36,014 nucleotides of DNA, from the NCBI GenBank assembly GCA_964419225.1, contig CAYQPF010000035.1, positions 1-36,014 on the forward strand. Reading direction: 5' to 3'. The notes below the pieces were generated by a model. The model saw only the letters and a list, made by a program, of their open reading frames with translations. It searched no databases and was not told the origin of the DNA. Positions 15,107 through 33,132 of this stretch are shown here, in pieces. Position 1 is the stretch's first letter. The number at the start of each line of letters is the position of its first letter. A program made the position numbers and the translations under genes. The stretch is from an uncultured Candidatus Cloacimonadota bacterium (GTDB lineage: Bacteria; Cloacimonadota; Cloacimonadia; Cloacimonadales; CAYQPF01).

Positions 15107-15133
15107 AATTAACTCCCTACTTCTCACGGAAGA

Positions 15134-17694: not shown

Positions 17695-18422
17695 TTTATC
17701 CTCAGCAAAATATAGTCGGTCGTTTTTTCAATTCTAAAATACTTGCAGGTTAGTTTATTATTGCCGGCTATTTTATCAAATTGATTCAGCCATTCACCGG
17801 TGGAAATCGCTTTATCTTTGTTTGTATCAGAAGTTTTTAGAGCTTTAGTAGTTCTATAAACAGTTTGTCTTAAATAATAAAGTTGATCATCAAGAGATGT
17901 GCTTTGCACATCAGAACTTTGGGAATTGATAACAACGAGATACTTACCTGAGGTAAAGTCTGTACAAGAATATTCCTGCAAAAATTCTTCAGGAAGAGGA
18001 GATTTTCCGGGTGCTACGATAAATATGATATTATTGAACGCCGGACTGATCTTAATAAAATTCAAAAGATAATCCAAAGTCAGAGTGGTTTTGTATTCTG
18101 TTGCCAAAATACTGGATTCTCCACCAGATTTTTTTTCCCAGGCTCCTGCTAAAACACCACAGAAGAAGGAACTATCTGTTAAAGACTTGGAAAAATCCAG
18201 ATATTGAGAGAAAACATTTTCCTTGAGATTAATCTGGACTGAACGTTGGGGTGTTTGCTGAAAAGCTCCGCTAAGTATTTGAAGCAGTTCATCCTTGTTC
18301 GAGTCGAACCCTTTTGCTTTGAATTGATCATTACCTTCAGAGCTATGTATTAGCAAACTATAGTTTAACCCATTAAGGCTAAAACTGAGCATAAGGCAAA
18401 TTAAAATAATTATGGATTTCAT
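17691..18422 (-). CDS. Secreted hypothetical protein
   Basis: ORF of 243 aa with an N-terminal signal peptide 'MKSIIILICLMLSFSL'. It is translationally coupled by ATGA overlaps on both sides within the MoxR-vWA operon. Confidence 0.45.
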   Translation of the reverse strand: MKSIIILICLMLSFSLNGLNYSLLIHSSEGNDQFKAKGFDSNKDELLQILSGAFQQTPQRSVQINLKENVFSQYLDFSKSLTDSSFFCGVLAGAWEKKSGGESSILATEYKTTLTLDYLLNFIKISPAFNNIIFIVAPGKSPLPEEFLQEYSCTDFTSGKYLVVINSQSSDVQSTSLDDQLYYLRQTVYRTTKALKTSDTNKDKAISTGEWLNQFDKIAGNNKLTCKYFRIEKTTDYILLRIK

Positions 18423-20155: not shown

Positions 20156-21144
20156 CCAAGGGTTTTTAGTATTTTTTGGACAATATCCTGAGATTTGTAT
20201 CCCTCTGCTTCTGCAGCAAAAGAGAGAAGCAGTCTGTGTTGCAGAACGATCTCAGCAGAGCTGATCACATCTTCAACCGATGGTGTAAGTCGATTATCCA
20301 TGGCAGCTTTGGCTTTGGCAGCCAGAACCAGGAATTGAGAAGCTCGAGGCCCGGCACCCCAGTTAACCATACTCTTAACAAAGTCCGGTGCTTCAGGATT
20401 TGAAGGGCGGGTTTTTCTTACCAATTTAACAATAAAATCAAGAACATGCTCACTCACAGGAATATTCCGGATTGATTCCTGAATTTTTACAATGTGGGCG
20501 GCATCTGTTATCTTTCTCAATTCTGTTTTTTCTGAACTTGTAGTTTTTTCAGCTATCATTTTCTCAGTATCATAAGAAGGATAATCAATATAAATCTTAA
20601 ACATAAATCTGTCTAACTGAGCTTCGGGTAAAGGGTATGTACCCTCCTGCTCGATTGGATTCTGGGTCGCTAATACTAAAAATGGTTGATCCAAATTATA
20701 TGTCTGATTTCCTGCTGTAACCTGATACTCCTGCATAGCCTGCAATAGTGCAGACTGCGTCTTGGGAGGTGTTCTGTTGATTTCATCTGCCAGAATAATA
20801 TTAGCAAAGACAGGACCCTTGATGTATTCAAAATACCGTTTACCATCAGATTTATCTTCAGCTAAAATATCTGTACCTGTAATATCAGATGGCATTAAAT
20901 CCGGGGTAAACTGAATTCTGCTAAACTTTAGATCCATTACTCGAGCTAAGGATGATACTAAAAGTGTCTTAGCCAAGCCAGGGACTCCTTCCAACAAACA
21001 ATGCCCGTTACAAAACAAGGCACAAAGGAAATCCTCTATTACTTTTTCCTGTCCGTAAACAGACTTATTTATTTCCGAAATTATCTTTTTCTTAGTATCC
21101 TGTACTGTTTCCAGCACTTTTACGAAATCAGCGTTACTTTTCAT
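20152..21144 (-). CDS. moxR: MoxR-family AAA+ ATPase
   Basis: Walker A reads 'GVPGLAKTLLVSSLARVM'. Walker B/sensor reads 'ILADEINRTPPKTQSALLQAMQE'. The ORF is 330 aa, typical MoxR size. Confidence 0.9.
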   Translation of the reverse strand: MKSNADFVKVLETVQDTKKKIISEINKSVYGQEKVIEDFLCALFCNGHCLLEGVPGLAKTLLVSSLARVMDLKFSRIQFTPDLMPSDITGTDILAEDKSDGKRYFEYIKGPVFANIILADEINRTPPKTQSALLQAMQEYQVTAGNQTYNLDQPFLVLATQNPIEQEGTYPLPEAQLDRFMFKIYIDYPSYDTEKMIAEKTTSSEKTELRKITDAAHIVKIQESIRNIPVSEHVLDFIVKLVRKTRPSNPEAPDFVKSMVNWGAGPRASQFLVLAAKAKAAMDNRLTPSVEDVISSAEIVLQHRLLLSFAAEAEGYKSQDIVQKILKTLG

Positions 21145-22141
21145 TTTCTATTGCTCCTGTTTCTATAACATCAATAATTTTATAACCGGAATAACTGATG
21201 GCAATAAATCCCACCAGAATAATCAAACCGCCTGTCAATAAATGGGCAAAAGCCATGACAGCACTCACCATCGTTTTATCAAGTCCCAGACCTGCTGAGA
21301 ATACAATAATCATCACAAGTTCATTACTCCCGATTTGAGCAGGAGGATGTGGTATAACATAAGACAAATATATCAGGGTATATCCGAATAAAATCATAAA
21401 ATAATTGATCTCCTGATTAAATGCCTTGAACATAAACAGGAAATAAACACTATCAATACTGACAGCTAATAGTGTAAGAATAAGTAACTCCGGCAGAAGA
21501 ACGTAATGATTTTTGAAAATTGCAACACCTTCGACAAACAATTGCACAATATCTTCGTATTTTTTTTCGTATTTATAGGGGATATATTTACTCCAACGGT
21601 GGAGAAAAGCAATAATTTCATCTTTCTTTATTGCAGATAAAATCAAAATAGTAAATCCAACAAAAAATACAGCTATCAACATAATAATCAGAAATAATAA
21701 ATAATCCGATACATGTACATTAAGAAAAGGTAATAAAATTAAGACCAGAAAAATTGAAACTGAATCAAACATCTTGTCAATGAAAACAGAAGGTAGTGTT
21801 TTCGAAATAGGAACACCCGTAGTCTTTTTAACAAAAAAACTCTTTGCCAACTCGCCTGCTCGAACAGGGATCATATAATTTATAAAATTCCCTGCCATCC
21901 AAATCAAAAAGGTACGACCTGCACCCATCTTTAAATTCACAGAGAGAAGTTTATTCCAGCGTAAGGAGCGTACAAAGTATGATAATAAATACAAAAATGC
22001 TGCAATCACGACATATGATAGTTTTACACTCCGGAAATATGGCACAATATCTTTTACATCAATAAATTTAGACCAGATACCCAGAAAAAGAACACCGATA
22101 ATTAATCCCAGTATTACTTTCCAAATATTACTTTTTTTCAT
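21134..22141 (-). CDS. Polytopic membrane protein, flippase-like/UPF0104 (lysyl-phosphatidylglycerol-synthase transmembrane-region-like) family
   Basis: ORF of 335 aa with about 8 hydrophobic segments. The N-terminus 'MKKSNIWKVILGLIIGVLFLGIWSKFIDVKDI...SLRWNKLL' is typical of this family. It overlaps both neighbours. Confidence 0.55.
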   Translation of the reverse strand: MKKSNIWKVILGLIIGVLFLGIWSKFIDVKDIVPYFRSVKLSYVVIAAFLYLLSYFVRSLRWNKLLSVNLKMGAGRTFLIWMAGNFINYMIPVRAGELAKSFFVKKTTGVPISKTLPSVFIDKMFDSVSIFLVLILLPFLNVHVSDYLLFLIIMLIAVFFVGFTILILSAIKKDEIIAFLHRWSKYIPYKYEKKYEDIVQLFVEGVAIFKNHYVLLPELLILTLLAVSIDSVYFLFMFKAFNQEINYFMILFGYTLIYLSYVIPHPPAQIGSNELVMIIVFSAGLGLDKTMVSAVMAFAHLLTGGLIILVGFIAISYSGYKIIDVIETGAIENEK

Positions 22142-23237
22142 AGTTTTCAGGATTAGAAAATCCCTTTACTCCGATTAGCTTTTTAGGACAAATATCGTAA
22201 CAGTGCAAACAACGCAAGCATTTTTTACGATCAAATGTAAACTTTGCAGATATTGCTCCAACTGGGCATTCTTCAAGACATTTTCGACAATCCTGACAGA
22301 AGGAAATAGGTTCCAAAATCGGCCTCGTCCCAAAATAGCCTGTCTTGTAAAGAAAAGTATTAAAATGTACGGAAAATAATTTTTCGAACACAAAATCAAT
22401 TATATACAGACATCTGTAGGCAAACTGATAACCCTTACTTTGCTTTGGCAGTTCAAATTTATGTCTTTCAATATTCCCTTCGATTTCAATTGGTACATTA
22501 TTCCGAGCTAAGTTTATATAGGAAATATCTTTATAATCTACACCCATGAAATCGCAGGCAATTTTATCAGTTGCAAAGGGATCTAATCCTGCTATCAGAG
22601 TCATAGTCTTTTTCAAATTTCCATAAACCGCCCCATCACCTTCCATGGAATTGATAGCATCGATAATGGTTAAGGTTGGCTTTATAACCTTGTTCAGATC
22701 AGCCACAGCCGCATGAATCCCTAAACTATGCATCAATTTACGAGTGTCATGATGACAAAAACCCATCAGATTCTTCATCCCCAGAGTAACCTGGGTTATA
22801 ACGTGCGTTTTCAAAATCGGCACATTTACAATCTTATTTTCCAAAACTATTCTTGGGACTTTAATCTTTTTCAGTACAAAAGAATTGGGAACAGGTATGG
22901 TTATAAAATCCTTCTCTTCAGGAATAAATACTTCTATATCGTGTTTTTCTGCAAATTCCCAGATCTTCAAATAATTGAACACTTCGCGGGTATCAAATTC
23001 CATTCCCGGCATCTCACAGATTATAGGCTTACATCCCAGTGTCTGAAGTTTCTGCACGATAGCTTCCAGTAATCCAAGATTGGTCGTGGCACCCTTGGAA
23101 TTCTCTCTGGGTGCTACAAAATTCGGCTTTAGGATAACCCTTTCTCCACTCTTGAATAATTGAGTCCATTCTAATTTATCCAGAAAAGGATATATGTCCA
23201 GTTCATCCTTAAGCTTCTGTATATAAACCTTATTCAT
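22128..23237 (-). CDS. DUF362 domain protein with a C-terminal 2x[4Fe-4S] ferredoxin module
   Basis: Two CxxCxxCxxxCP motifs read 'CQDCRKCLEECP' and 'CLRCLHCYDICP'. The start is placed at the internal 'MNKVYIQ' ATG, because the longer ORF would overlap the upstream gene by about 100 nt. Confidence 0.65.
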   Translation of the reverse strand: MNKVYIQKLKDELDIYPFLDKLEWTQLFKSGERVILKPNFVAPRENSKGATTNLGLLEAIVQKLQTLGCKPIICEMPGMEFDTREVFNYLKIWEFAEKHDIEVFIPEEKDFITIPVPNSFVLKKIKVPRIVLENKIVNVPILKTHVITQVTLGMKNLMGFCHHDTRKLMHSLGIHAAVADLNKVIKPTLTIIDAINSMEGDGAVYGNLKKTMTLIAGLDPFATDKIACDFMGVDYKDISYINLARNNVPIEIEGNIERHKFELPKQSKGYQFAYRCLYIIDFVFEKLFSVHFNTFLYKTGYFGTRPILEPISFCQDCRKCLEECPVGAISAKFTFDRKKCLRCLHCYDICPKKLIGVKGFSNPENYEKK

Positions 23238-23241
23238 TGTC

Positions 23242-24072
23242 TCAATTGGGAACAAAAACATAGTATTTATGATGAGCCCAGAATTGCTTGAAGAAGTCCG
23301 GTGCTGCTTTTTCCAACCAAAAATACTGAAGCATTTTATCTTCAAAAAGAGGATCTTTGTCCCGATAAAAATCCATAATCGTTACTGCACTCTTAGGTTC
23401 ATCACTTGGGGGTAACTTAATCCCGAACTTAGCCACAAACTCCTCTTTAGGCATCCCGATATCCGGCCAGGGTGGACAATCAATGAAATTACTCAATATC
23501 AAATTCCAGCCCATACTTTTCATTATTGGTTTAAAACACCCAGGTGAAATATATTCTTCCTTTAAGGTCGATTGTAACTCTTTCTTCCCAAAATATTTCT
23601 GGGACAAATAACCTAAACCTGTTGTATTCGGAACACAAAGCACAATAACTTTCTTTGTAACCCTGTTCAGTTCTGCTAAAAATTGCGTAATATCTTGTAC
23701 AAACCAAAGTGCAGAGAAATTCCAGGAAAAATCTATACTTTTGTCAGGTAAATTAATATTATCGTAGTTTGTGTTATATTGAAAATTGGCTGAAAGATTT
23801 GTCTTCTTCCATTCTTCTTCCATTAAACTAATTCTTTCTTCATCATGATCAAGCAACGTAATATTCATTCCCTTCAGAGCTAAATTCATACTATTGATTC
23901 AACTCAGACCTGTAAAACCAAAACAAGGTGCCTCTAAGACAGACTCTACCTTGAAATTGCGGACAATCTTATTCAAAAAATGATTAATTATTACTCTTTC
24001 ATAGGAAGAGCCTAGACCCTCATCAGGATCAGAAAAATAGTTTTTCCAGATATTAACAATTGGAATGGCCAT
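23242..24072 (-). pseudogene. Class I SAM-dependent methyltransferase interrupted by a single in-frame TGA at 23899-23901. It is a nonsense-mutation pseudogene, an assembly error, or recoded.
   Basis: ORFs 23899..24129 and 23242..23889 are in the same frame, separated only by TGA-ATC-AAT-AGT. The joined sequence '...VLEAPCFGFTGLS*INSMNLALKGMNITLLDHDEE' reads like a methyltransferase motif I/post-I region. Confidence 0.6.
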
Positions 24073-25033
24073 TTTGCTCCTTATACCAATCAATAACTCT
24101 CTGAAAATCAGGTATTGTATGGCATTCATCTAACTTCAAATCAGCGTATGTATCCTCGGTATTGTAATCCCAATCCCGTGAGATCAATTCTATTCTGCTG
24201 GTCCACAATTCGTTCTTTAAAGCCTTGAAAAAAGTTTCACTCAAGCGAAAACAACTGTCAGATAACATAATATTATAATTCTTTTTCTTTAAGCCATCTC
24301 TGATAAAAGTGAACAAGTCTTTCAATATAACAGGTTCTTTATCTGCTAAATTATATGCTTTACCGACAGGAAGATCAAGTTCGCAAGCATTGACAAACGC
24401 CTGTGTTATCAAATCCACATTCGCCAAATGAATCTTAACCTCACTCATAGGCAGGGCCATCATATATTTATCTGTCAGTTTTGTCAGAGTATAAGGAAAT
24501 CCATAATCTCCTTCACCATATGTAATCGAAGGTCTCAAAACCACTGCATTCAAGCCAAGTTTCACCTTCTCCTGAATCATTTTTTCACATTCTATCTTAG
24601 TGATATGATAATAATTATCCCGTTTGAACGGAGTTGAATCATTCGCCGGGACGCTTTGCGGTATCGCTCCATACACACCGACTGAAGAGCAGAATATGAA
24701 TTTACTGTTGTTCTTCAGAGCGTTATCAAGCAATTTACCGGTTGCTTTGATATTGGCCAGAAAGTACGAAGACATGGGGAACCTTCTCCCGCCTCGCAAA
24801 GCACCAATATGCATAATAATGTCGAAGGAATTCTGATTAAGGTATTTCTCCAAACCAAAAACATTCTCCAAATTGATTTCTACCAATTGAATCTTATCTC
24901 TGTATTCTGCAATTTTCTGCAAATCAGAACCAGGTCGGACAAGCCCTGTTATCTCATAATCTTTTTCTATTAATTGCTTCAGAATGTGATGTCCGATAAA
25001 GCCATTGATCCCTGTTACTAATATTTTTTTCAT
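24053..25033 (-). CDS. NAD-dependent epimerase/dehydratase (extended SDR) family protein
   Basis: The Rossmann motif 'KILVTGINGFIGHHIL' and the YxxxK region are present. The start is set at 'MKKILVTG', adjacent to the cpsB stop, and the 24-codon upstream extension is rejected. Confidence 0.8.
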   Translation of the reverse strand: MKKILVTGINGFIGHHILKQLIEKDYEITGLVRPGSDLQKIAEYRDKIQLVEINLENVFGLEKYLNQNSFDIIMHIGALRGGRRFPMSSYFLANIKATGKLLDNALKNNSKFIFCSSVGVYGAIPQSVPANDSTPFKRDNYYHITKIECEKMIQEKVKLGLNAVVLRPSITYGEGDYGFPYTLTKLTDKYMMALPMSEVKIHLANVDLITQAFVNACELDLPVGKAYNLADKEPVILKDLFTFIRDGLKKKNYNIMLSDSCFRLSETFFKALKNELWTSRIELISRDWDYNTEDTYADLKLDECHTIPDFQRVIDWYKEQNGHSNC

Positions 25034-25034
25034 T

Positions 25035-25820
25035 CTATAATCCAAATAATTTCTTAAATAATGATTTTTTTGCTTCCGGCTGCTTCTTAAAGCGTTCCGC
25101 TCCAAAATAATTTACTTTTTCGTTTTTCAGCATCTTCATGGGATTGATTTCGGAAAGTAATTTAGCAGTATGATCATTGGTTTCACTCCGAATAGCTTCT
25201 ACTGCATCAACATAACTATAATCCTGTGTATGACAGTGAGTATCAGAACCTAAAAAATGTGCATATCCGTTGTAGATCATTTCCCAGGCAGTATCCTGAA
25301 TCTTCTTGCCATAACCACCCAACAGGCTTCCGGTATTGATCTGCATATAAATATTCCGATGAATCAGATCTTCTACTGCATAGGGATTATTAATAAATTC
25401 TGTATATCTTTCAGGATGAGCCAAAATCGGTTTATAACCCTGTTTTACCAGAATATAATAAATATCGAGCAAACCGTTGGGAAAACCATTCATACTGGTT
25501 TCCATAAGAATATAATTTGTATTATTTAAGGTCAGGTTTTCCTTGATAACATCCAAGTGAATATCTTCACTAAGAAATATTTCTGCACCACGGTAAAGTT
25601 CAATATTTATATTCTCTCTTTGTACTGCATCTTTTAATATCTGAAATTTCACATTTTGAATTTCCGCTGTATTATCATAAAATCCCTTCATGTAATGGGG
25701 AGTCAAAATTACACCTTTAATTCCCTCCTCACTCATAAACTTCAAATAATCTAAAGATGTATCCAGATCCGGAGATCCGTCATCAACATCAAACATAATG
25801 TGAGAATGTATATCAATCAT
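25035..25820 (-). CDS. CpsB/CapC-type PHP-family protein-tyrosine phosphatase (capsular polysaccharide biosynthesis)
   Basis: Diagnostic N-terminus 'MIDIHSHIMFDVDDGSPDL'. Further His/Asp metal ligands are seen in 'LTPHYM', 'LAHPERY' and 'LGSDTH'. The ORF is 261 aa. Confidence 0.85.
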   Translation of the reverse strand: MIDIHSHIMFDVDDGSPDLDTSLDYLKFMSEEGIKGVILTPHYMKGFYDNTAEIQNVKFQILKDAVQRENINIELYRGAEIFLSEDIHLDVIKENLTLNNTNYILMETSMNGFPNGLLDIYYILVKQGYKPILAHPERYTEFINNPYAVEDLIHRNIYMQINTGSLLGGYGKKIQDTAWEMIYNGYAHFLGSDTHCHTQDYSYVDAVEAIRSETNDHTAKLLSEINPMKMLKNEKVNYFGAERFKKQPEAKKSLFKKLFGL

Positions 25821-26572
25821 ATGCCATCCTTACTAATTTGTATTGCCTGAGCAAATTCACTGATTAATGCTTTATCCGGAGTGTTCTCGAAAACAGTCCC
25901 AATCACCACAAAATCTGCTCCGGCTCTTGCTTTACAAGCCGCTTCCTCAGGTGTTTTTATGCCACCCCCGACAATAAGAGGGATTTCAATATTATTTTTT
26001 ACAACGGTAATCATTTCTTCAGGCACAGAGTTTTTAGCTCCGCTTCCGGCTTCCAAATAAACCATTCGCATGCCTAAATACTGCCCGGCTAAAGCATGCG
26101 TCACCGCAATATCAATTTTCTTTCTGGGTATGGGAATACTGTGACTCATGTACTGCACCGAAGTCAAACTGTTGGATTCGATCAACAAATAAGCAGTACC
26201 AATACTTTCCAGATTATACTTTTTAATCAAAGGAGCAGAACGAACCTGTTCTCCTACTAATAATTCCGGATTCCTGCTGCTCAGCATACTTAATAAGAGT
26301 ATTGCATCAGCATATGGAGAAACGAAATTAAACAATCCTGGGAAGATTATTAATGGTATTTTTACCTGCTTTTTTATTTCTCTTAAACACGATTCAAAAT
26401 TATCATGGAGCATCATACTACCACCTATGAGAAGTGCATCTGCCCCACTTTCTTCGCAATCCAAGGCAAAATCTATAGCAGTTCCCTCGCTATGCTTATC
26501 CGGATCGATAAGACAGAAAAACCCAGTTCTTTTCCGGGCAATTTCTAAGAGTTTCTCATATGTTTTTATCAT
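25817..26572 (-). CDS. PcrB/GGGP-synthase family (geranylgeranyl- or heptaprenyl-glyceryl phosphate synthase) TIM-barrel prenyltransferase
   Basis: The ORF is 251 aa with 'FFCLIDPDKHS', 'LLIGGSMM' and a C-terminal 'LIVGGGIKTPEEAACKARAGADFVVIGTVFE' phosphate-binding block. An ATGA overlap joins it to cpsB. Confidence 0.8.
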   Translation of the reverse strand: MIKTYEKLLEIARKRTGFFCLIDPDKHSEGTAIDFALDCEESGADALLIGGSMMLHDNFESCLREIKKQVKIPLIIFPGLFNFVSPYADAILLLSMLSSRNPELLVGEQVRSAPLIKKYNLESIGTAYLLIESNSLTSVQYMSHSIPIPRKKIDIAVTHALAGQYLGMRMVYLEAGSGAKNSVPEEMITVVKNNIEIPLIVGGGIKTPEEAACKARAGADFVVIGTVFENTPDKALISEFAQAIQISKDGI

Positions 26573-26573
26573 A

Positions 26574-27404
26574 TTATTTACCTATCCACATTATTATCAG
26601 GATGAAAAACATATTCAGTTTCATCAAATTAGAGATATAATTCAAATTTTTCTTGGTAACATTTCTGTTCAAAAATAAGTAAGAGATCAACAAAGGCAAA
26701 ATGGTAAAAATATTGAGCAAATTAAAAGTCAGCATCGATATCATTCCATGCCAAAATAGAGAAAAAACACCAATACCCATCGCTAATATCAGCGTAAATG
26801 TAATCGAAAAAGTCCAAGTCTTTCCCATTACAATTGGTATAGTTTTTGCCCCCTGACTCATATCACCTTCCACATCTTCCGTATCCTTGATGATTTCCCG
26901 GATCAATGTATATGTAAAAGCAATAAATGAAATTGCCAGCGCATAACTGACATTATCATTGGCTATTGCCCCGTAAAAGAATGTCGAAGCTGCAGAATAT
27001 GCTATCAACAAATTACCCAACAAAAATGTCTTTTTCAAATATCCTGCATAGACCACTAACAGCAATGTATTCACAACTGCAATTATGATACACCATTTAT
27101 GCCAGGTCAAAACACTCAGAAAAAAACCGGTAATCATCAGAATCCAGGCATACTTTAAAGCCGTACCTGGTGAGATTTTACCAGAAGGTAAAACCCTGTC
27201 TTTTCTGTTTATCTTATCGATTTCCAGATCATAATAATCATTAAGTACATAACCACCTGCTGCTATAAAAGTGGCAGCTAAAGCACTTAAAATTATGACC
27301 CTGATATCAAAAACAGTTGCCTTGATCATTGCCCCATACACTACACATAAAGCAGTAAAAAAGCAATTGAAAGGTCTGATTATCTGCAGAAATGCTTTTA
27401 TCAC
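26574..27404 (-). CDS. UbiA-family prenyltransferase, DGGGP-synthase-like (digeranylgeranylglyceryl phosphate synthase homologue)
   Basis: Eight or nine TM helices. Asp-rich motif 'NDYYDLEIDKINRKDR'. It sits immediately upstream of the PcrB/GGGPS gene, which is the archaeal ether-lipid gene order. Confidence 0.7.
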   Translation of the reverse strand: MIKAFLQIIRPFNCFFTALCVVYGAMIKATVFDIRVIILSALAATFIAAGGYVLNDYYDLEIDKINRKDRVLPSGKISPGTALKYAWILMITGFFLSVLTWHKWCIIIAVVNTLLLVVYAGYLKKTFLLGNLLIAYSAASTFFYGAIANDNVSYALAISFIAFTYTLIREIIKDTEDVEGDMSQGAKTIPIVMGKTWTFSITFTLILAMGIGVFSLFWHGMISMLTFNLLNIFTILPLLISYLFLNRNVTKKNLNYISNLMKLNMFFILIIMWIGK

Positions 27405-28292
27405 TTAAGGTAATCTGTCCTTGATCATGGCGACAAATTCAACCAGTATCTCATTATTATCCATATTCTTGATCATTTTATAGGAATCTTCCAGGAGCTT
27501 TTCTGCTGTCTTGCGTGCCTTATCCAAACCCAATAAGGAAGAATATGTTATCTTATTATTCCGATAATCTTCACCTGGTTCTCTGCCTAAATATTCAAAT
27601 TCACCGATTTCATCCAATATGTCATCTATAACCTGATAAGCTAAACCTAAATTCAATGCATAATTCCCAATTGTGATGGTTATATTATCTTCCGCATCCG
27701 CCATTATGCAGGCCAAATCTGTGGCTGCCTGAAGCAGTGCACCCGTCTTCTTCAAATGAACATATCTCAACACATTGATTCTGACATTCTTGTCCGTCGA
27801 TAAAATATCAACAGCCTGACCACCTATCATTCCCCGTGTTGATACTGCCCGGCACATGGTATTGATGCAGCGTACTGCTTTTTCAGGTTCCTGAACCAAG
27901 GTAAGCATCTCAAATGCTTTGGTGATTAATGCATCCCCGGCAAGTATTGCCGTTGCGGGATCAAACTTCTTGTGGCAGGTCGGCTGTCCTCTTCTCTCAT
28001 CTGAATTATCTACACTCGGTAAATCATCATGAATCAATGAAGCTGTATGGATCATCTCCAATGCACAACCAACAGGCAGAACAGGATTCAGGACATTAGC
28101 ATTCTTCTTGCCTTTCAACATCTCATAAACAGCAAAAAAAAGAATTGGTCTAAGCCTCTTCCCTTCAGAAAATACAGAATATCGCATAGCCTCAAAAAGA
28201 CTTGACGGATTCTCTTTTACCGGAGTCAGATAACTGTCCAGAGCGTCTTCCAATATTTTTTTCCTACTATCAAAGTATTTTTGGATTAACAA
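27405..28292 (-). CDS. Polyprenyl diphosphate synthase (GGPP/FPP synthase, trans-IPPS)
   Basis: FARM 'LIHDDLPSVDNSDERRG' and SARM 'YQVIDDILDE' are present. The ORF is 295 aa. Confidence 0.85.
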   Translation of the reverse strand: MLIQKYFDSRKKILEDALDSYLTPVKENPSSLFEAMRYSVFSEGKRLRPILFFAVYEMLKGKKNANVLNPVLPVGCALEMIHTASLIHDDLPSVDNSDERRGQPTCHKKFDPATAILAGDALITKAFEMLTLVQEPEKAVRCINTMCRAVSTRGMIGGQAVDILSTDKNVRINVLRYVHLKKTGALLQAATDLACIMADAEDNITITIGNYALNLGLAYQVIDDILDEIGEFEYLGREPGEDYRNNKITYSSLLGLDKARKTAEKLLEDSYKMIKNMDNNEILVEFVAMIKDRLP

Positions 28293-28306: not shown

Positions 28307-29335
28307 TTAAAGTGGTAAGGAAATTTTTGTGCCTTTTTTGGCAGATTCATACATCCCCAAAATGATTTCCAAAGACTTACGTCCCTCCCGACCATCTGTG
28401 TTTGCTTCTTCATGCCCCAGCAAAGTGGCTGCCACATTCCGGAGAAAACCGGTATGGCCATAACCATAAACACTTTGCGGATTGGTTGCGACATTTTCAA
28501 CCAATTTATCATCATCATCATAGTCCTTGAATTCCCAGTGCTCAATCTTATTCACTGCAATTCCTCCGACTTTGACTGTTCCGTTTTCACCCATTATTGT
28601 TATAGAGCCTTCCAGATTTTTGGGGAAAATATTCATCGTTACTTCCACATTTCCTAAAGCTCCGTTTCTGAATTTAATTATACCCATACCCTGATCCTCT
28701 ACTTCGATCCTATGGTTGGATGTTGTCGTAAATGACATAACTGACTCCACCGGTCCCATCAACCATTGAATCAGATCAAAATAATGCGAAGCCTGATTAA
28801 GAAAGGCTCCCCCGTCAAACTCCCAGGTTCCCCGCCATTTGGCCAAATCATAATAGGATTGAGGTCTGGCCCATCTGACTGTTACATTGGCAGAAAATAA
28901 TCTTCCGAATCTGCCTTTATCAATAGCTTTCTTTAAAAGCTGAATCGGAGAATTTAGTCTGTTCTGTTTAACTACAAAAAGACTAACCTGGTTTTGATCA
29001 CATGCTCTTATAAGTTCATCTGCAGACTTCAAATCGATAGCCATAGGTTTTTCACTTACCACATGGATCTTTCGTCTGGCAGCTTCAATTCCCATCTCAG
29101 GATGTAATCCACTCGGACTACAGATAAGCACTGCATCCATTTCTTCCTGATCAAGCATAAGTTTGTAGTCAATATAAGTTTTGTTGATCTTGTAGGTTTG
29201 TGCGGCTCTTTCTGCTCTTTCAGAAATGATATCTGCACAAGCTACAATTTCAGCTTCATCGATATTAGCAATTGCTTCAAAATGCTTTTCAGCTATTCTC
29301 CCGCATCCTATGAGACCAAATTTAATTTTCTTCAT
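28307..29335 (-). CDS. Gfo/Idh/MocA-family NAD(P)-dependent sugar (UDP-sugar) dehydrogenase
   Basis: N-terminal Rossmann 'KFGLIGCGRIAEKH'. C-terminal GFO_IDH_MocA_C-like region. It is adjacent to wecB. Confidence 0.8.
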   Translation of the reverse strand: MKKIKFGLIGCGRIAEKHFEAIANIDEAEIVACADIISERAERAAQTYKINKTYIDYKLMLDQEEMDAVLICSPSGLHPEMGIEAARRKIHVVSEKPMAIDLKSADELIRACDQNQVSLFVVKQNRLNSPIQLLKKAIDKGRFGRLFSANVTVRWARPQSYYDLAKWRGTWEFDGGAFLNQASHYFDLIQWLMGPVESVMSFTTTSNHRIEVEDQGMGIIKFRNGALGNVEVTMNIFPKNLEGSITIMGENGTVKVGGIAVNKIEHWEFKDYDDDDKLVENVATNPQSVYGYGHTGFLRNVAATLLGHEEANTDGREGRKSLEIILGMYESAKKGTKISLPL

Positions 29336-30414
29336 TTATCACTCTCTTTCAATAAATATTCTAAAATAAATTCCGCTGCCTTACCGTCCCCAAAGGCAGC
29401 ATTTTGTTCTGATGCTATCTCCTGGCAGGCTACAGCTTTTTTTATCTTTTCAGTATCTGCACCGCATATTATGTTCCAATTTCCGACTAAAGTTTCCACC
29501 CATTCTGTTTCATCTCGTAATGTTATGCAGGGTTTCTTTACAAAATAAGCTTCTTTCTGTAAACCACCGGAATCAGTCAGTACCTTAACACATCCATTCA
29601 ATAAAGCTAACATTTCCAAATATCCAACTGGATCAATCACTTTAATTGATTCAGACAGCTGAATCTTCTGCTCAGCAATATACTTTTTCGTCCTTGGATG
29701 TAATGGCAATATCACAGGAGCATCCAAAGTTCCCAACGCACCCAGAATACTCGAAAGTCTGGCCGGATGATCTGTGTTCTCCGCCCTGTGTAAAGTGGCA
29801 AGATAGTAGCTTTCAGGCAAATCATTAGTCTTATATAATTCCGGGTTACTCAGAATTTTATCCTGATAAAACAAAACCGAATCATACATTACATCACCGG
29901 ACAATACAGCATGCTCCAGCAGTCCTTCTGTTGTCAAATGCTGCATAGCTGTCTGAGTGGGTGCAAACAAAATATCACTGATCTTATCGGTAACAATCCG
30001 GTTGATCTCCTCGGGCATATTCCTGTTAAAACTTCTTAGACCGGCTTCTACATGTGCGACTTTCATATGCAGTTTCACAGCTGCCAATGAACCAGCTACC
30101 GTAGAATTGGTATCACCATAAATTACTACCCAATCAGGGTTTTCCTGCATGAGTACTTTTTCTATTTTGTCCAGCATTAATCCGGTCTGTTCTCCATGTG
30201 AACCTGATCCAACTTCCAGATTATAATCAGGCTTGGGGATATCCAGCTGTTCAAAAAATATGTCAGACATGTTCTGATCATAATGCTGCCCGGTATGTAC
30301 CAACACTTCCTGAATCTCAGGATGCCTTCCAATCACCCGGCTCAGGGTCGCAGCCTTGATAAACTGTGGTCTGGCTCCAATAATAGTCAGTATCTTTAAT
30401 CTATTTTTTTCCAT
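29332..30414 (-). CDS. wecB: UDP-N-acetylglucosamine 2-epimerase (non-hydrolysing)
   Basis: 'ILTIIGARPQFIKAATLSRVI', 'VHTGQHYDQNMS' and 'DSGGLQKEA' are present. The ORF is 360 aa. Confidence 0.9.
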   Translation of the reverse strand: MEKNRLKILTIIGARPQFIKAATLSRVIGRHPEIQEVLVHTGQHYDQNMSDIFFEQLDIPKPDYNLEVGSGSHGEQTGLMLDKIEKVLMQENPDWVVIYGDTNSTVAGSLAAVKLHMKVAHVEAGLRSFNRNMPEEINRIVTDKISDILFAPTQTAMQHLTTEGLLEHAVLSGDVMYDSVLFYQDKILSNPELYKTNDLPESYYLATLHRAENTDHPARLSSILGALGTLDAPVILPLHPRTKKYIAEQKIQLSESIKVIDPVGYLEMLALLNGCVKVLTDSGGLQKEAYFVKKPCITLRDETEWVETLVGNWNIICGADTEKIKKAVACQEIASEQNAAFGDGKAAEFILEYLLKESDK

Positions 30415-30511: not shown

Positions 30512-30546
30512 TTAAAAAGGAGTCCCTATCCAAGGGATAAGGACTC
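30512..30546 (-). terminator. Putative intrinsic terminator downstream of the flotillin-like gene
   Basis: On the minus strand the hairpin 'gagtccttatcc-ctt-ggatagggactc' has an 11-12 bp stem with a 3-5 nt loop. It is followed by 'cttttt'. Confidence 0.5.
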
Positions 30547-30585: not shown

Positions 30586-33132
30586 TTATTTTACTTCCGC
30601 ATCTCCACCTTGTACATTCTTCGGTGTTATCTGTTTAACTAAAAATGCTGATAATAATTCCATTACCCCATTTCCTTCACTTCCACCACTCTGGACAAGA
30701 AAATCAGGAGTTATCTTCACATTACTGCTGGATAATAACTTCGTTACTTCTATGGCTACAAGTCCTTCCGCACCTACAGCATTCTGTTGAAGCTTATATG
30801 CAGCTGCAGTAGCTTCACCTTTTGCCAGAATTGCAGTACCCTCTGCCTTACCTACAAAGGTTATACCATCAGACTCACCCTTCTTCTGCAACCTCACAGC
30901 TTCTGAACTTCCTTCCGCCTCAGTAATAACCTGTGCTTTTATGTTCTGTGCTATCTCTACATTGATGGCAGACTGGACAAGATCTCCCTGCCTGTCTGCT
31001 TCAGCCTTGGTCTTCTCAGTCGCGATACGGCTCTGCTGAGCTTTCTGCTGTTCAACATACATCGTCTGTTCCTGCTGAGCAATAATCTTCTGCGTCTGTG
31101 TATTCATCAGATCCTGAGGTAACTTAATCTGACAAATTAAAACTGAAACCAGCTCTACATGGTATTTTTCCAGTTCACGGCGGGCCCTTTCTTCAGCTTT
31201 TTCCTGTTCCTCATGTCTGTTTTGCATGAAGTTCATTGCTGATGTCGAGGATGCCTGATTCCGGAAACTGGAATCTATCATCGGATGTATAACATGATCC
31301 ACCAAATTCTCGATCGATCCAATCTTTGCCACCATATACGGTGCCTGATCAGGTCTGATTCTGATCACAACTTTTACCGATACACTTATCTCAAAACCAT
31401 CCCTGGAAATTACCTTCAACGGATCAAATTTTGTCGCTTCCTCTTCATCCCAATCTATTGTGATATTGGTTGTATTGACCACATACACTATGAAAGCCCG
31501 ACGGTTCAAATAATATATACCAGGTCCTACAACTTCACTCTGAATACCACGGAATCCTTTGGGAACTACATATCGTTCAATCCCTGCTTTTAGTCTGTCT
31601 TCAAAAATATCTGGTTTCACCGCAGGAACAGTCTCTCCGGCACTCTCATTCAAATCAGTCAGGGTAACAATTCTTTCTTCTTTTTGCTGTTCTGCTTCTG
31701 ATACGATCAGCGAAGCTTTGGGTTCTTCCCCCACATTAGAGATAACCACTGCAACTTCACCTCTCTGAATTGTGGTTACATCATCCTGATCTACAGTAAA
31801 CATTAAAGGATTTATATAATATGTACCTGGCTTAAGCACATCAAGCTGAGGTCCTCTCTGACCACCTTTATCCAAAAATGCCGTTATGTTCTGATAATTA
31901 TTATGCCCTTCTATCGGCTTCGCTACATACTCATTCTCAGGTAAGGGCTCACCATCTCTAGCCGTAACTAACCCAATCTTTGATGCCTGAATTACAGTTG
32001 CATCTTTGATAATTACATTGAATAAGTTAGTATTAACACGGTAAGTACCAGGTAATAAAATCTGGCATTGCGGTCCTTTTTCTCCGTTATTTCTCAAAAA
32101 CTCCTGCCCGTTTTCAAAATTAGAATGCCCCGGCACAACCTTGGCCAACAACCTTCCTTTGGTTATCTGAGCTCCGTCATTGGCTGTAATGACACCAACC
32201 TGACCCTGACCAACCACAATCGCATTTATCGGTTTAACGTTGAATAATTTAGTATTGATCCGGTAATTTCCCGGAGGCAATACTGCGATTTGCGGTCCCT
32301 TCTGCCCACCATTGTCCAGGAACATCTTGCCATCCTGGAAAGAATTACATTCTGCATCCTCTGCAAAAATCCTTCCTGCCGGTACCGGATTACCGTCTAT
32401 CGATTCCACAAGACCAATTTTACCTTCACCGATTGACGTTACTTCCACAACTGTTACGATAAATAGTCTCGTATTGATACGATAATTACCGGGAGGTAAA
32501 ATTCCTATTTGCGGTCCTTTCTGACCTTTGTTTTCAAAGAATTTCCGTCCGTCTTGAAACAGATTACAGTCCACATGCTTGGCAAAAATCCTTCCCGGAG
32601 GTACTGATTCACCGTCTATCGACTCTACCAGCCCTATCCTGCCTTCCCCGATTGTTATTACAGAATGAATTGTGACCTGAAACATTCTGGTATTTATTCT
32701 ATAAGTTCCAGGAGGTAAGATATCAACCTGCGGTCCTTGCTGACCGTTATTGTTCAAGAAGGCTTCACCATCCTGAAAATAATTCGATTCCACAGGTTCA
32801 GCAAAAATGCGACCCTTTGGTACCGGAATACCGGTTCTGGATTCTACAAGACCGATCTGATTATCTCCGATGATCACAAAATTAACTTTCTCCGACACAA
32901 AAATGTAAGGAACTACAAAGTGTAAACCGGGTCCAAGTGTCTTTACCTGAACACCAACTTCGCCACTCATAGCAAAAACACGGCCTTCAGGCATACTCTT
33001 ACCAAACCAGCGACGCTCCAATATCCGGATATTATTACCGCCTACCACTATAAAAGATTTGATAATGGTTATCAGCAGTATCAAGGCTCCCAGTCCGATC
33101 AGAATGTTCGTAAATGTCATCAATTCTAACAT
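30586..33132 (-). CDS. Flotillin-like SPFH/band-7 membrane protein, carrying an N-terminal array of five ~75-aa tandem repeats upstream of the SPFH and 'flotillin' coiled-coil (EA-rich) regions
   Basis: N-terminal TM helix. The repeat unit 'IGLVES.DG.PVP.GRIFA....CN.FQDG..F..N.GQKGPQ...LPPG.YRINT.LF.V' occurs 5 times. It resembles the start of YqiK-type SPFH domains. The C-terminal EA/Q-rich coiled coil is typical of flotillins. SD AGAGAGG lies upstream. Confidence 0.7.
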   Translation of the reverse strand: MLELMTFTNILIGLGALILLITIIKSFIVVGGNNIRILERRWFGKSMPEGRVFAMSGEVGVQVKTLGPGLHFVVPYIFVSEKVNFVIIGDNQIGLVESRTGIPVPKGRIFAEPVESNYFQDGEAFLNNNGQQGPQVDILPPGTYRINTRMFQVTIHSVITIGEGRIGLVESIDGESVPPGRIFAKHVDCNLFQDGRKFFENKGQKGPQIGILPPGNYRINTRLFIVTVVEVTSIGEGKIGLVESIDGNPVPAGRIFAEDAECNSFQDGKMFLDNGGQKGPQIAVLPPGNYRINTKLFNVKPINAIVVGQGQVGVITANDGAQITKGRLLAKVVPGHSNFENGQEFLRNNGEKGPQCQILLPGTYRVNTNLFNVIIKDATVIQASKIGLVTARDGEPLPENEYVAKPIEGHNNYQNITAFLDKGGQRGPQLDVLKPGTYYINPLMFTVDQDDVTTIQRGEVAVVISNVGEEPKASLIVSEAEQQKEERIVTLTDLNESAGETVPAVKPDIFEDRLKAGIERYVVPKGFRGIQSEVVGPGIYYLNRRAFIVYVVNTTNITIDWDEEEATKFDPLKVISRDGFEISVSVKVVIRIRPDQAPYMVAKIGSIENLVDHVIHPMIDSSFRNQASSTSAMNFMQNRHEEQEKAEERARRELEKYHVELVSVLICQIKLPQDLMNTQTQKIIAQQEQTMYVEQQKAQQSRIATEKTKAEADRQGDLVQSAINVEIAQNIKAQVITEAEGSSEAVRLQKKGESDGITFVGKAEGTAILAKGEATAAAYKLQQNAVGAEGLVAIEVTKLLSSSNVKITPDFLVQSGGSEGNGVMELLSAFLVKQITPKNVQGGDAEVK

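Follow-up and report, generated by a model that had tools for sequence, protein, structure and literature searches.

Three adjacent genes on the minus strand of the 36,014-nucleotide stretch of DNA analyzed here (referred to as the window) represent, with a probability that we put at roughly 0.85, the core of the "archaeal-like" ether-lipid pathway of the Cloacimonadota, as judged from the predicted activities of the encoded polyprenyl diphosphate synthase, UbiA-family and PcrB-family prenyltransferases. The trio itself is an already known arrangement for this phylum, published by Villanueva et al. in 2021 (ISME J 15:168; PMC7852524), and the window carries a divergent member of it; a preliminary description of this DNA had already noted that GGGPS/DGGGPS pairs are reported from this lineage. 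As described in the main text of that paper, the co-localization of the genes for GGGPS and DGGGPS is, among bacteria, restricted to Cloacimonetes, a polyprenyl synthase gene is found on the same scaffold, and both expression by RT-PCR and transcription in situ were recorded. Furthermore, an orthologous GGGPS forms GGGP in vitro from GGPP and either G1P or G3P, and PG-unsat(8)-archaeol was formed in E. coli from the orthologues (PMC7852524).

The short-chain trans-polyprenyl diphosphate synthase (IPPS; 27405..28292, 295 aa, TTG start) is followed with a gap of 0 nt by the DGGGPS-like UbiA protein (26574..27404, 276 aa, GTG start) and, 1 nt further on, by the PcrB-family TIM-barrel protein, a group II GGGPS (25817..26572, 251 aa), which overlaps with the next gene by 4 nt. 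These open reading frames lie exactly where the preliminary description had placed three tightly spaced minus-strand genes, and the Pfam searches that it had proposed confirmed all three families with scores far above the gathering cut-offs: 186 bits for polyprenyl_synt (PF00348; cut-off 27), 127 bits for UbiA (PF01040; cut-off 34.2) and 157 bits for PcrB (PF01884; cut-off 23.9). While the position of the trio was thus correct, its extent (25817-28292) was drawn too narrowly, and the treatment of the trio alone as a unit missed the larger conserved cluster to which it belongs. Closely packed genes of the same orientation extend from about 30414 down to 21134 or further, and the trio is very probably co-transcribed within this longer operon of about 9 kb, in the order wecB-like, WlbA-like, IPPS, DGGGPS, GGGPS, PHP phosphatase, SDR, methyltransferase, DUF362/Fer4 and flippase-like genes. 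Its probable upstream boundary is a terminator-like minus-strand hairpin (30520..30546; 12-bp stem with 6 GC pairs, followed by a T-run) between a Band7 gene and wecB; this is the only long-stem site of its region, but since terminator-like sites occur overall at chance level (16 versus 13 +/- 3.9), its weight derives exclusively from its position and stem length.

The synthase possesses the FARM (DDLPSVD) and SARM (DDILD) motifs noted previously, the former being of the DDxxxxD form that is characteristic of the bacterial type II enzymes. Among the NCBIfam models, it passes the cut-off of the FPPsyn subfamily (293 bits; cut-off 275) and does not reach that of the CrtE GGPP synthase (264 bits; cut-off 460), while the models for heptaprenyl, octaprenyl and solanesyl synthases lie between 105 and 121 bits, as compared with 264 to 293 bits for the FPP/GGPP types. 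Its best matches in the PDB are 7MY6 (222 bits) and 7MXZ (207 bits). The position five residues upstream of the FARM is occupied by Ala, both here and in the cluster-linked IPPS proteins of three other loci (L012, L014, L016), whereas the E. coli FPP synthase IspA carries a chain-limiting Tyr at this site; a C20 product would therefore fit, and the protein is probably a GGPP synthase.

A grouping of the PcrB protein with the Firmicutes-type heptaprenylglyceryl phosphate synthases (HepGPS), which would have contradicted the preliminary description, was not seen, and the comparisons place it with the group II GGGPS enzymes. It scores 215 bits with the GGGP equivalog model TIGR01769 (cut-off 161.55) and 288 bits with NF003198 (cut-off 247), a model whose name spans both GGGPS and HepGPS activities, but only 37 bits with the HepGPS model NF003197. 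The GGGPS structures from Flavobacterium (4JEJ) and Methanothermobacter (4MM1) yielded 190 and 179 bits, respectively, in comparison with 35 to 37 bits for the HepGPS structures from Bacillus and Staphylococcus and 30 bits for the group I structure 2F6U. The YLEAGSGA and VGGGI motifs are kept, and a Tyr is present where mtGGGPS has its "aromatic anchor" W141, a feature typical of hexameric group II GGGPS (PMC7888582); the enzyme from the window is therefore probably a hexamer as well. In a neighbor-joining tree, it is nested in a Cloacimonadota clade whose sister is the GGGPS clade of the FCB superphylum.

The UbiA protein contains the NDYYDLEIDK motif that had already been pointed out and a second Asp-rich motif (KDTEDVEGD), both of which align in a full-length match (124 bits) to the DGGGPS of M. 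jannaschii (PDB 6M31). Its best NCBIfam matches are DGGGPS-type models (193 bits), a score below every equivalog cut-off (269-353). The MenA model reaches 21 bits, the A. pernix UbiA 29 bits and chlorophyll synthase 41 bits, and no match to a 4-hydroxybenzoate transferase was found in the NCBIfam and PDB comparisons; a grouping with quinone prenyltransferases, the other result that would have contradicted the preliminary description, was likewise not seen, and the protein groups with DGGGPS. Named homologues are DGGGPS proteins from Cloacimonetes, Altiarchaeota, Zixibacteria and Parcubacteria. It is very improbable, in our view, that the PcrB homologue makes a Bacillus-like C35 monoether and that the UbiA protein serves quinone or pigment prenylation. 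Membership in the PcrB family alone, and the double meaning of the name of NF003198, would permit this reading, but the HepGPS model and structures at 35-37 bits versus 179-215 bits for GGGPS, the short-chain type of the adjacent synthase, and the MenA and 4-hydroxybenzoate transferase results all speak against it. Tested by sequence comparison, this reading was not supported.

In the pathway envisioned for the trio, the synthase would use IPP and allylic diphosphates to form geranylgeranyl diphosphate (C20), the group II GGGPS would transfer the geranylgeranyl group to the glycerol phosphate hydroxyl to yield GGGP, and the membrane-embedded, Mg2+-dependent DGGGPS would attach another such group, yielding DGGGP, which is the core of unsaturated archaeol phosphate. 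The subfamily assignments thus support the earlier claim that the three genes cover the steps building the archaeal di-ether glycerol-phosphate lipid core. In line with a proposal in the literature, the bacterial CdsA enzyme may then CDP-activate DGGGP. Another possibility is its dephosphorylation by the PHP phosphatase, after which the SDR and the methyltransferase may modify the molecule and the flippase-like protein may translocate it. The C20 chain length, the activity of these particular proteins, the stereochemistry of the product and the cellular fate of DGGGP are all inferred. Such lipids are, to our knowledge, not reported in vivo from any culture or lipid extract of the Cloacimonadota. 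The families and the reaction order are those of the archaeal core pathway (GGPPS, GGGPS, DGGGPS, CarS; 4MM1, 6M31), with which the window also shares the YLEAGSGA and GGG phosphate-binding loops, the two Asp-rich UbiA motifs and the Tyr anchor, at identities of 41% (GGGPS) and about 35-40% (DGGGPS). In contrast to the archaeal situation, the host is a bacterium reported with a full fatty-acid/G3P pathway, the synthase is of the bacterial type II, and the window lacks genes for G1P dehydrogenase, CarS and geranylgeranyl reductase. Genes for G1P dehydrogenase and CDP-archaeol synthase, neither of which lies within these 36 kb, are reported as missing from the phylum in the main text of PMC7852524. 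The Bacteroidetes GGGPS of F. johnsoniae (4JEJ) is likewise of group II and gave the highest score in the PDB (190 bits, 44% identity), but the GGGPS genes of Bacteroidetes and Ignavibacteriales (L006, L007) are, unlike that in the window, solitary among housekeeping genes, and the Flavobacteriales enzymes are dimers with an Arg anchor (Peterhoff et al. 2014, as cited in PMC7888582) instead of the Tyr.

The contig belongs to the Cloacimonadota. All named close homologues derive from this phylum, the flanking genes are 63-74% identical to and syntenic with those of Cloacimonadota contigs, and the organism proposed in the preliminary description agrees with these data and with the nesting of the GGGPS. 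That the archaeal-looking genes reflect an assembly chimera or archaeal contamination of a bacterial bin is hardly credible. The contig is metagenome-assembled and relatives with 39-41% identity are found in archaea, yet the nearest relatives are bacterial, the trio (GC content 0.35-0.40) matches the remainder of the window with uniform GC content and GC skew through the region, the genes sit on the same strand at near-zero spacing to typical bacterial neighbors, and the same arrangement recurs in over 10 independent assemblies, among them contigs with lengths of 559 kb and 1.84 Mb. In addition, Villanueva et al. re-amplified the locus junction of a related MAG by PCR, as given in the main text (PMC7852524).

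In 11 distinct loci of the Cloacimonadota type, the window included, ubiA is the gene immediately upstream of pcrB, and IPPS precedes ubiA in eight of these (window, L012, L014, L021, L024, L033, L035, L036) and also in L034; two loci (L022, L023) are too short to reveal it. A GGGPS gene without an adjacent DGGGPS gene is present in five Cloacimonadales genomes, and a di-ether product is therefore not universal in the phylum. The closest relatives found are 62-67% (GGGPS) and 45-50% (DGGGPS) identical to the window proteins, which thus represent a divergent lineage. The Ca. Cloacimonetes MAGs NIOZ-UU1 to UU4 have the same three families adjacent on one strand, a GGGPS that clusters with the Cloacimonadota, and, according to the main text, neither G1P dehydrogenase nor CarS nearby (PMC7852524). 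Their PriA - polyprenyl synthase - DGGGPS - GGGPS order is that of L034, whereas the window has wecB-like and WlbA-like genes upstream instead of PriA, and an extra DUF362/Fe-S gene. The downstream PHP, SDR, methyltransferase and flippase-like genes are not discussed in the main text of that study (PMC7852524).

In conserved order, the trio is followed by genes for a PHP phosphatase, an SDR, a methyltransferase specific to the lineage and a membrane protein that resembles flippases, all on the minus strand. The PHP-domain phosphoesterase of the CpsB/YwqE family (25035..25820; PF19567, 178 bits, full length; YwqE 118 and CpsB 84 bits in the PDB) is the gene that overlaps the pcrB stop codon; it is the next gene after pcrB in 13 out of 13 sufficiently long loci of the Cloacimonadota type, and where pcrB is absent it is missing as well. 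The extended SDR, an "NAD-dependent epimerase/dehydratase" of the 3-beta-HSD-like type (24053..25033; PF01370, 103 bits), likely starts at an internal ATG at 25033, and its relatives in the PDB are weak, none exceeding 57 bits. Together with the class I SAM methyltransferase (23242..24072; weak PF08241 match), it is kept in every variant of the cluster. In the window, the methyltransferase gene is broken by an in-frame TGA (23899-23901) at an invariant Gly. Its family had 312 word-search matches, all named ones from Cloacimonadota, and a full profile search gave 473 representatives; the AF2 model (pLDDT 88) displays a generic class I fold, and no sequence relative was found in the PDB. A DUF362 protein with two [4Fe-4S] ferredoxin domains (22128..23237; PF04015, 152 bits, plus Fer4 domains) occurs only in this version of the cluster; it resembles (29% over 387 aa, 195 bits) the product of the gene that follows a methyltransferase-DUF362 fusion in an Atabeyarchaeia genome. 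Fusions of this type and SDR-methyltransferase fusions, the latter in six other representatives, are known outside the cluster, including in an Asgard archaeon. The LPG_synthase_TM/flippase-like integral membrane protein (21134..22141; PF03706, 131 bits; TIGR00374, 101 bits) closes the cluster at its 3' end in six other loci (L003, L012, L016, L033, L035, L036), is nearby in L034, and follows DUF362/Fer4 in the Atabeyarchaeia locus (L037), which has the same methyltransferase, DUF362/Fer4, LPG_TM order.

This gene content raises the possibility, which we consider tentatively, that the end product is a processed, specialized isoprenoid glycerol ether and not a bulk archaeol phospholipid. The PHP protein would dephosphorylate GGGP or DGGGP, the SDR, the methyltransferase and, here, the DUF362/Fe-S protein would modify the hydroxyl or head group, and the flippase-like protein would carry the product across the membrane; such a scheme extends the ether-lipid pathway and does not replace it. 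The linkage of the PHP gene to pcrB, the constant presence of SDR and methyltransferase genes, the operon-like spacing and the recurring Atabeyarchaeia gene order are consistent with it, as are the fusions, which point to joint action of these proteins, and a further cluster (L039) that has genes for IPPS, UbiA and a GG-reductase-like protein besides an SDR-methyltransferase fusion. Dephosphorylation followed by capping has precedents: in Bacillus, HepGP is first dephosphorylated and then acetylated by YvoF, and Halobacteria contain acetyl-archaeol (PMC9179154), a branch that offers a possible parallel to the PcrB-PHP-(SDR)-methyltransferase arrangement. B. subtilis and the window have in common a bacterial PcrB-family protein for the prenylation of glycerol phosphate, but the Bacillus PcrB is a C35-specific group I enzyme (37 bits to the window protein) without a DGGGPS, its pathway is capped by an acetyltransferase and not a methyltransferase, and no PHP phosphatase is known to be linked to it. 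On the other hand, the Firmicutes proteins CpsB and YwqE are protein-tyrosine phosphatases, inherited synteny could account for part of the conservation within a single phylum, and the methyltransferase of the window has an in-frame stop. Outside the Cloacimonadota, moreover, the SDR-methyltransferase module occurs mostly among genes for GT2 glycosyltransferases and radical-SAM proteins, a setting that could indicate sugar and not lipid chemistry.

Sugar-related genes also stand at the upstream end of the operon. A GFO/IDH/MocA oxidoreductase (28307..29335, minus strand; Pfam GFO_IDH_MocA) ends 14 nt before the synthase gene and scores 374 bits with PDB 3Q2K/3Q2I, which we take to be WlbA; it is probably a WlbA-like UDP-sugar 3-dehydrogenase, and a 65-74% identical protein is encoded directly upstream of IPPS in L012, L014, L024, L033 and L035. 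Its start is overlapped by 4 nt by a WecB-type UDP-N-acetylglucosamine 2-epimerase gene (29332..30414, minus strand; PF02350, 358 bits; TIGR00236, 314 bits), with which the transcription unit probably begins. One could thus view the region as a surface-polysaccharide or glycoconjugate locus in which an isoprenoid glyceryl phosphate is a glycan anchor or carrier and not a membrane-forming lipid. The presence of the WlbA-like gene before IPPS in six loci, the CpsB-family phosphatase, "epimerase"-type SDR and flippase-like protein, and relatives of the SDR-methyltransferase module among GT2, GT4, GT-C and Wzx genes are compatible with this idea. We nevertheless consider it unlikely: genes for a glycosyltransferase, a polymerase and a BY-kinase are all missing from the Cloacimonadota cluster, wecB does not keep this place in the other loci, and PG-archaeol was obtained in E. 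coli from the orthologous GGGPS and DGGGPS with no glycan machinery present, as reported in the main text of PMC7852524.

The core of an "archaeal-like" ether-lipid pathway hence remains our preferred reading of the trio, and what is new beyond the published three genes is the larger conserved gene cluster that they head.

Three open reading frames were located on the minus strand exactly at the coordinates of the preliminary description; they encode a polyprenyl synthase of 295 amino acids with a TTG start (27405-28292; PF00348, 186 bits), a UbiA-family protein of 276 amino acids with a GTG start (26574-27404; PF01040, 127 bits), and a PcrB-family protein of 251 amino acids (25817-26572; PF01884, 157 bits, cut-off 23.9). 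All three Pfam scores far exceed the gathering cut-offs, and the motifs quoted in that description (FARM and SARM in the synthase, NDYYDLEIDK in the UbiA protein) were found. The synthase and UbiA genes abut, the UbiA and PcrB genes are separated by 1 nt, and the PcrB stop codon overlaps the start of the next gene by 4 nt. GC content (0.35-0.40) and GC skew run unbroken from the trio into its flanks, and tRNA and Rfam scans of the window returned no matches. We suggest, with a probability of about 0.85, that these genes encode a GGPP synthase, a DGGGPS and a GGGPS that jointly make a di-ether core of the DGGGP type; their family placement, motifs, gene order, and taxonomy come directly from the present analysis.

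Based on the pattern of its HMM and PDB scores and on the published definition of the two groups (PMC7888582), in which group I comprises the Firmicutes HepGPS enzymes and the GGGPS of A. fulgidus and the Halobacteria, the PcrB protein is classified as a group II GGGPS. It scores above the thresholds of two NCBIfam models, the GGGP equivalog TIGR01769 (215 bits, cut-off 161.55) and NF003198 (288 bits, cut-off 247), and it matches the group II structures 4JEJ from F. johnsoniae, 4MM1 from M. thermautotrophicus, and 6JO3 with 190, 179 and 144 bits, respectively. The HepGPS structures from Bacillus and Staphylococcus reach 35-37 bits (3VZX/1VIZ, 37 bits), and the group I enzyme 2F6U from A. fulgidus 30 bits. 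The preliminary description had weighed the alternative that the PcrB homologue is a heptaprenylglyceryl-phosphate synthase of the Firmicutes type; with 37 bits to the HepGPS model NF003197 against 215 bits to the GGGP equivalog, this assignment is not supported, and we regard a Bacillus-like function of the trio as very improbable. The glycerol-phosphate-binding loops (VYLEAGSGAK and LIVGGGIK) align with identical motifs in 4JEJ and 4MM1, and a Tyr residue aligns with the 'aromatic anchor' W141 of mtGGGPS. This anchor marks the hexameric group II enzymes, whereas the dimeric Flavobacterium enzyme carries an Arg residue at the corresponding position; the Tyr residue of the PcrB protein would thus be consistent with a hexameric assembly. 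The predicted reaction is the formation of GGGP from GGPP and sn-glycerol-1-phosphate. According to Villanueva et al. (PMC7852524), the purified GGGPS of Black Sea Cloacimonetes formed GGGP with G1P, and with G3P as well.

The UbiA protein aligns over its full length with the DGGGPS of M. jannaschii (MjDGGGPS; 6M31, 124 bits), including both Asp-rich motifs that serve as the Mg2+/diphosphate motifs of the UbiA fold (NDYYDLEIDK with NDIFDIEIDR, and KDTEDVEGD with KDFEDMEGD). Among other structures, chlorophyll synthase reaches 41 bits and ApUbiA from A. pernix 29 bits, and no MenA structure was matched in the PDB search. Its best NCBIfam matches are the DGGGPS-type models NF009523 (193.6 bits), NF009521 (193.2 bits) and NF009522 (150 bits), as against ChlG (71 bits), EboC (67 bits), heme O synthase (46 bits), and MenA (21 bits). 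Every curated DGGGPS equivalog cut-off (269-353) was missed by the protein, the models having been trained on archaeal sequences, so that its subfamily placement rests on relative scores and not on a passed threshold. On these scores its closest subfamily is DGGGPS, ahead of MenA, UbiA/COQ2, ChlG and heme O synthase, and its named homologues carry a DGGGPS annotation. Membership among the MenA/UbiA quinone prenyltransferases, the second alternative raised in the preliminary description, is not supported, with 21 bits for MenA against 193 bits for the DGGGPS-type models, and a quinone-related role is given very little weight. The predicted function is the transfer of a second geranylgeranyl group to GGGP, a reaction that an orthologue from Cloacimonetes has been shown to carry out in E. 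coli (PMC7852524). Activity is known for orthologues only, and we infer the stereochemistry and the in vivo fate of the product formed by the trio studied here.

The polyprenyl synthase is, by its sequence, a bacterial type II short-chain enzyme with the FARM motif DDLPSVD (DDxxxxD) and the SARM motif DDILD (DDxxD). It passes the FPPsyn subfamily model of NCBIfam (293 bits, cut-off 275) and misses CrtE (264 bits, cut-off 460); since databases name the enzyme only at the FPP/GGPP level, the length of its product is something that we infer. The fifth residue before the FARM motif is Ala, as opposed to the chain-limiting Tyr of E. coli IspA; three further loci have this Ala in their cluster-linked synthases, and in the GGPPS entry 7MXZ the position is occupied by Met. 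By the established chain-length rule (Ohnuma/Wang), a non-aromatic residue at FARM -5 leads to a C20 product. The Ala residue would therefore favour a product of C20 or longer, and the enzyme is predicted to supply GGPP (C20).

For the GGGPS, the DGGGPS and the methyltransferase nearby, every named close homologue stems from Candidatus Cloacimonadota (Cloacimonetes). Among species-representative genomes, the best matches are Cloacimonadales MAGs (58-65% identity), and identity falls to 52% in Ignavibacteriales, 46-47% in Bacteroidetes, and 39-41% in Archaea. A neighbour-joining tree, calculated without bootstrap, places the window's GGGPS inside a Cloacimonadota clade, with other FCB bacteria as its nearest neighbours and the group II enzymes of Archaea beyond them; as group I sequences were left out of this tree, the assignment to group II rests on the HMM and PDB scores. 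The flanking MoxR and GFO/IDH/MocA proteins share 63-74% identity with their counterparts on Cloacimonadota contigs, where the gene order also matches. It is very unlikely that the trio entered the contig through contamination or a chimeric assembly.

The preliminary description had claimed a precedent in Cloacimonadota and other FCB lineages, and for Cloacimonadota this holds. Villanueva et al. (2021) reported co-localised GGGPS and DGGGPS genes, in the same arrangement, in four Black Sea Cloacimonetes MAGs; according to their paper (PMC7852524), such co-localisation 'seems to be restricted to Ca. Cloacimonetes' within the bacteria, the same scaffold also encodes PriA and a polyprenyl synthase, transcripts were found in situ, and these MAGs lack a G1P dehydrogenase and a CDP-archaeol synthase. 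One of the loci compared here (L034) shows the PriA - synthase - DGGGPS - GGGPS order published for that locus. No G1P dehydrogenase, CarS or geranylgeranyl reductase was found among the window's ORFs of at least 120 amino acids. The observation stands, its interpretation was right, and the phenomenon was known before: the trio is a further, rather divergent member of the locus type described by Villanueva et al., and no other protein found shares more than 67% identity with its GGGPS or more than 50% with its DGGGPS. A search of later papers yielded nothing further on this locus.

The coordinates of the trio stand, but 25817-28292 cuts a probable operon in half. Downstream of a strong terminator-like hairpin (30546-30520), minus-strand genes follow in tandem, each overlapping the next or lying no more than 20 nt from it. 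The first two (together 28307-30414, overlapping by 4 nt) encode a WecB-type UDP-GlcNAc 2-epimerase and, directly upstream of the lipid genes, a GFO/IDH/MocA oxidoreductase with 374 bits to the PDB entries 3Q2K/3Q2I, which we take to be WlbA UDP-GlcNAcA 3-dehydrogenases (UDP-sugar 3-dehydrogenases). The trio (synthase, DGGGPS, GGGPS) supplies genes three to five, and it is followed by genes for a CpsB/YwqE-family PHP phosphoesterase (PF19567), an extended short-chain dehydrogenase (SDR), a class I SAM methyltransferase (23242-24072), a DUF362 protein with a 4Fe-4S domain, and an LPG_synthase_TM 'flippase-like' membrane protein. The GFO/IDH/MocA protein precedes the synthase in six loci and is, at 65-74% identity, the best-conserved protein of the neighbourhood. 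A role of the lipid as a glycan anchor appears improbable to us.

Beyond the hairpin, which separates it from the lipid cluster, lies a minus-strand gene (30586-33132) for an 848-residue protein in which about six tandem units of about 70 residues (FQDG...GQKGPQ..ILPPGxYRINT) precede a C-terminal SPFH/Band 7 domain. On the other side of the cluster, a minus-strand MoxR/vWA operon (15241-21144) encodes a MoxR AAA+ ATPase and then three overlapping genes, one with a weak vWA match; an operon of this Bat/MoxR-vWA type begins directly after the lipid cluster in most Cloacimonadota loci. The window also encodes a 1334-residue protein (11123-15127, minus strand) with a weak adenylate/guanylate cyclase-like region, an AAA_16 STAND-type NTPase and a long TPR array, a PEGA and FGE-sulfatase (formylglycine-generating enzyme-like) protein (17-2212), a full-length bacterial serpin (5516-6670; 361 bits), and a fusion of DHH, CBS and poly(A) polymerase/CCA-adding enzyme domains (8257-10833).

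Conservation of the cluster was assessed in 16 distinct Cloacimonadota-type loci; since a metagenome scan for further PcrB loci gave only 13, mostly short, long contigs were sampled individually. DGGGPS lies directly upstream of GGGPS in 11 loci, the window among them, and the order of GGGPS, DGGGPS and polyprenyl synthase is common to the window, L012, L014, L021, L024, and L033-L036. Five Cloacimonadales loci (L001-L005) possess GGGPS with neither DGGGPS nor the polyprenyl synthase within 8 kb, and the lineage of L016 and L017 has the synthase-DGGGPS pair at a site that lacks GGGPS. On the large contigs of four of these Cloacimonadales MAGs (L001, L002, L004, L005), the GGGPS-PHP-SDR-methyltransferase series is retained, the 8 kb upstream of GGGPS contain genes for ValRS, a GNAT protein, and an IS200-type transposase in place of DGGGPS and the synthase, and a word-based search found no DGGGPS homologue attributable to them; these four genomes may make a monoether lipid only. 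In each of the 13 loci whose sequence extends far enough, the PHP gene comes directly after GGGPS, and loci without GGGPS lack it too. Genes for the SDR and the methyltransferase, which is lineage-specific, occur in every variant of the cluster, and the flippase-like gene occurs in most. A conserved accessory set (window 21134-25820; L001-L005, L012-L017, L021, L033-L036) travels with GGGPS and/or DGGGPS in Cloacimonadota. The GGGPS genes of Ignavibacteriales and Bacteroidetes are solitary, with housekeeping genes around them; in one Bacteroidetes MAG (L007, 8004-12454) the gene lies near that of an NAD-dependent DNA ligase, a neighbourhood that resembles the pcrB-ligA region of Bacillus.

The PHP protein matches PF19567 (CpsB_CapC) over all of its 234 residues (1-234, 178 bits) and YwqE with 118 bits, and it carries an N-terminal DIHSH motif. 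No gene for a BY-kinase (CpsC/CpsD type) or a Wzz-type protein was found among the annotated genes of the window or in the Cloacimonadota clusters inspected; the protein has the CpsB/YwqE fold, whereas a capsule role with a BY-kinase is improbable. Sequence searches of the PDB returned only weak relatives for the SDR and none for the methyltransferase, for which structure prediction gave a good model with a generic class I SAM methyltransferase fold (TM about 0.5), prenyl-substrate C-methyltransferases being among its many fold-search matches. The methyltransferase family is small and counts 473 representatives in 1.84 billion. An in-frame TGA codon (23899-23901, minus strand) divides the gene into ORFs of 76 and 215 amino acids, the latter being the sole fragment annotated in the public record. 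It arises from a single GGA-to-TGA change at a position where 42 homologues invariably have Gly (FGFTGxSGINS). Recoding as selenocysteine or Gly was considered and rejected because TGA is the ordinary stop codon of 11 of the window's 27 ORFs and the change affects one base at an invariant Gly. The codon is a lesion (nonsense mutation) or a sequencing error, a point that calls for caution when this gene is cloned from the contig.

Outside Cloacimonadota, the methyltransferase is fused to the SDR in six representatives of its family and to DUF362 in one, which comes from an Asgard archaeon of the Atabeyarchaeia (WXG44783.1). In the latter's locus (L037; CP147779.1, 8755-14305), a radical-SAM gene, this fusion, a DUF362 and Fer4 protein, and an LPG_synthase_TM protein lie amid GT2 and nucleotide-sugar genes; the order of methyltransferase, DUF362/Fer4 and LPG_synthase_TM is that of the window from 24072 to 21134, and the two DUF362 proteins match with 195 bits. 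A metagenomic locus of 54% GC (L039, 548-9957) has the order radical-SAM, SDR-methyltransferase fusion, GT2, short-chain polyprenyl synthase, GT2, UbiA (not DGGGPS-like), geranylgeranyl-reductase-family flavoprotein, and Wzx, and in two further metagenomes (L038, L040) the SDR-methyltransferase fusion lies amid GT2, GT4, GT-C, and radical-SAM genes. A radical-SAM/SPASM gene adjoins the fusion or lies one gene away in all four outside loci and is absent from the Cloacimonadota clusters. In view of the fusions and the recurrent gene sets, it is likely that the SDR, the methyltransferase, the DUF362/Fe-S protein, and the flippase-like protein cooperate on a substrate that is either lipid-linked or a head group. 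DUF362 and the N-terminal domain of the LarA racemase belong to one Pfam clan (PMC11770544), which serves as a lead only. The glycerol stereochemistry, unexplained without a G1P dehydrogenase, might be supplied or set by the NAD-dependent epimerase-type SDR or by the LarA-clan DUF362 protein.

In Bacillus, HepGP is dephosphorylated and then acetylated, and acetyl-archaeol occurs in Halobacteria, where the proposed route proceeds via dephosphorylated DGGGP (PMC9179154). By analogy, the PHP phosphatase adjoining GGGPS, followed by the methyltransferase, could represent a comparable branch after ether-bond formation. It is conceivable, though less likely than not, that the accessory genes act on the DGGGP-type lipid, so that the true end product would differ from PG-archaeol. 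A speculative extension takes the trio as the first part of a single conserved operon. Its second part (the strictly GGGPS-paired PHP phosphatase, the SDR and methyltransferase that are fused elsewhere, the optional DUF362/Fe-S protein, and the flippase-like protein) would be a module for lipid processing and export that also occurs in Asgard archaea and in other isoprenoid-lipid clusters. If this is true, the product of Cloacimonadota would not be plain PG-archaeol but an isoprenoid glycerol ether that has been dephosphorylated and modified, for instance by O-methylation or another cap.

Bacteria possessing both archaeal ether-bond-forming enzymes are the main living argument for the viability of 'mixed' archaeal/bacterial membranes, a question relevant to the lipid divide and to models of LUCA and eukaryogenesis. 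The contig adds one more divergent Cloacimonadota example and leaves this picture unchanged. In our view, the more useful result is that a PHP phosphatase, an SDR, a methyltransferase, and a flippase-like protein reliably accompany GGGPS and DGGGPS, an accessory set that the accessible sections of Villanueva et al. (2021) do not discuss and that, as a conserved module, is not treated in the literature available. These genes are clonable candidates for determining the fate of DGGGP, the head group, and the stereochemistry in organisms without a G1P dehydrogenase, and they connect the bacterial cluster with an uncharacterised module of the Asgard archaea.
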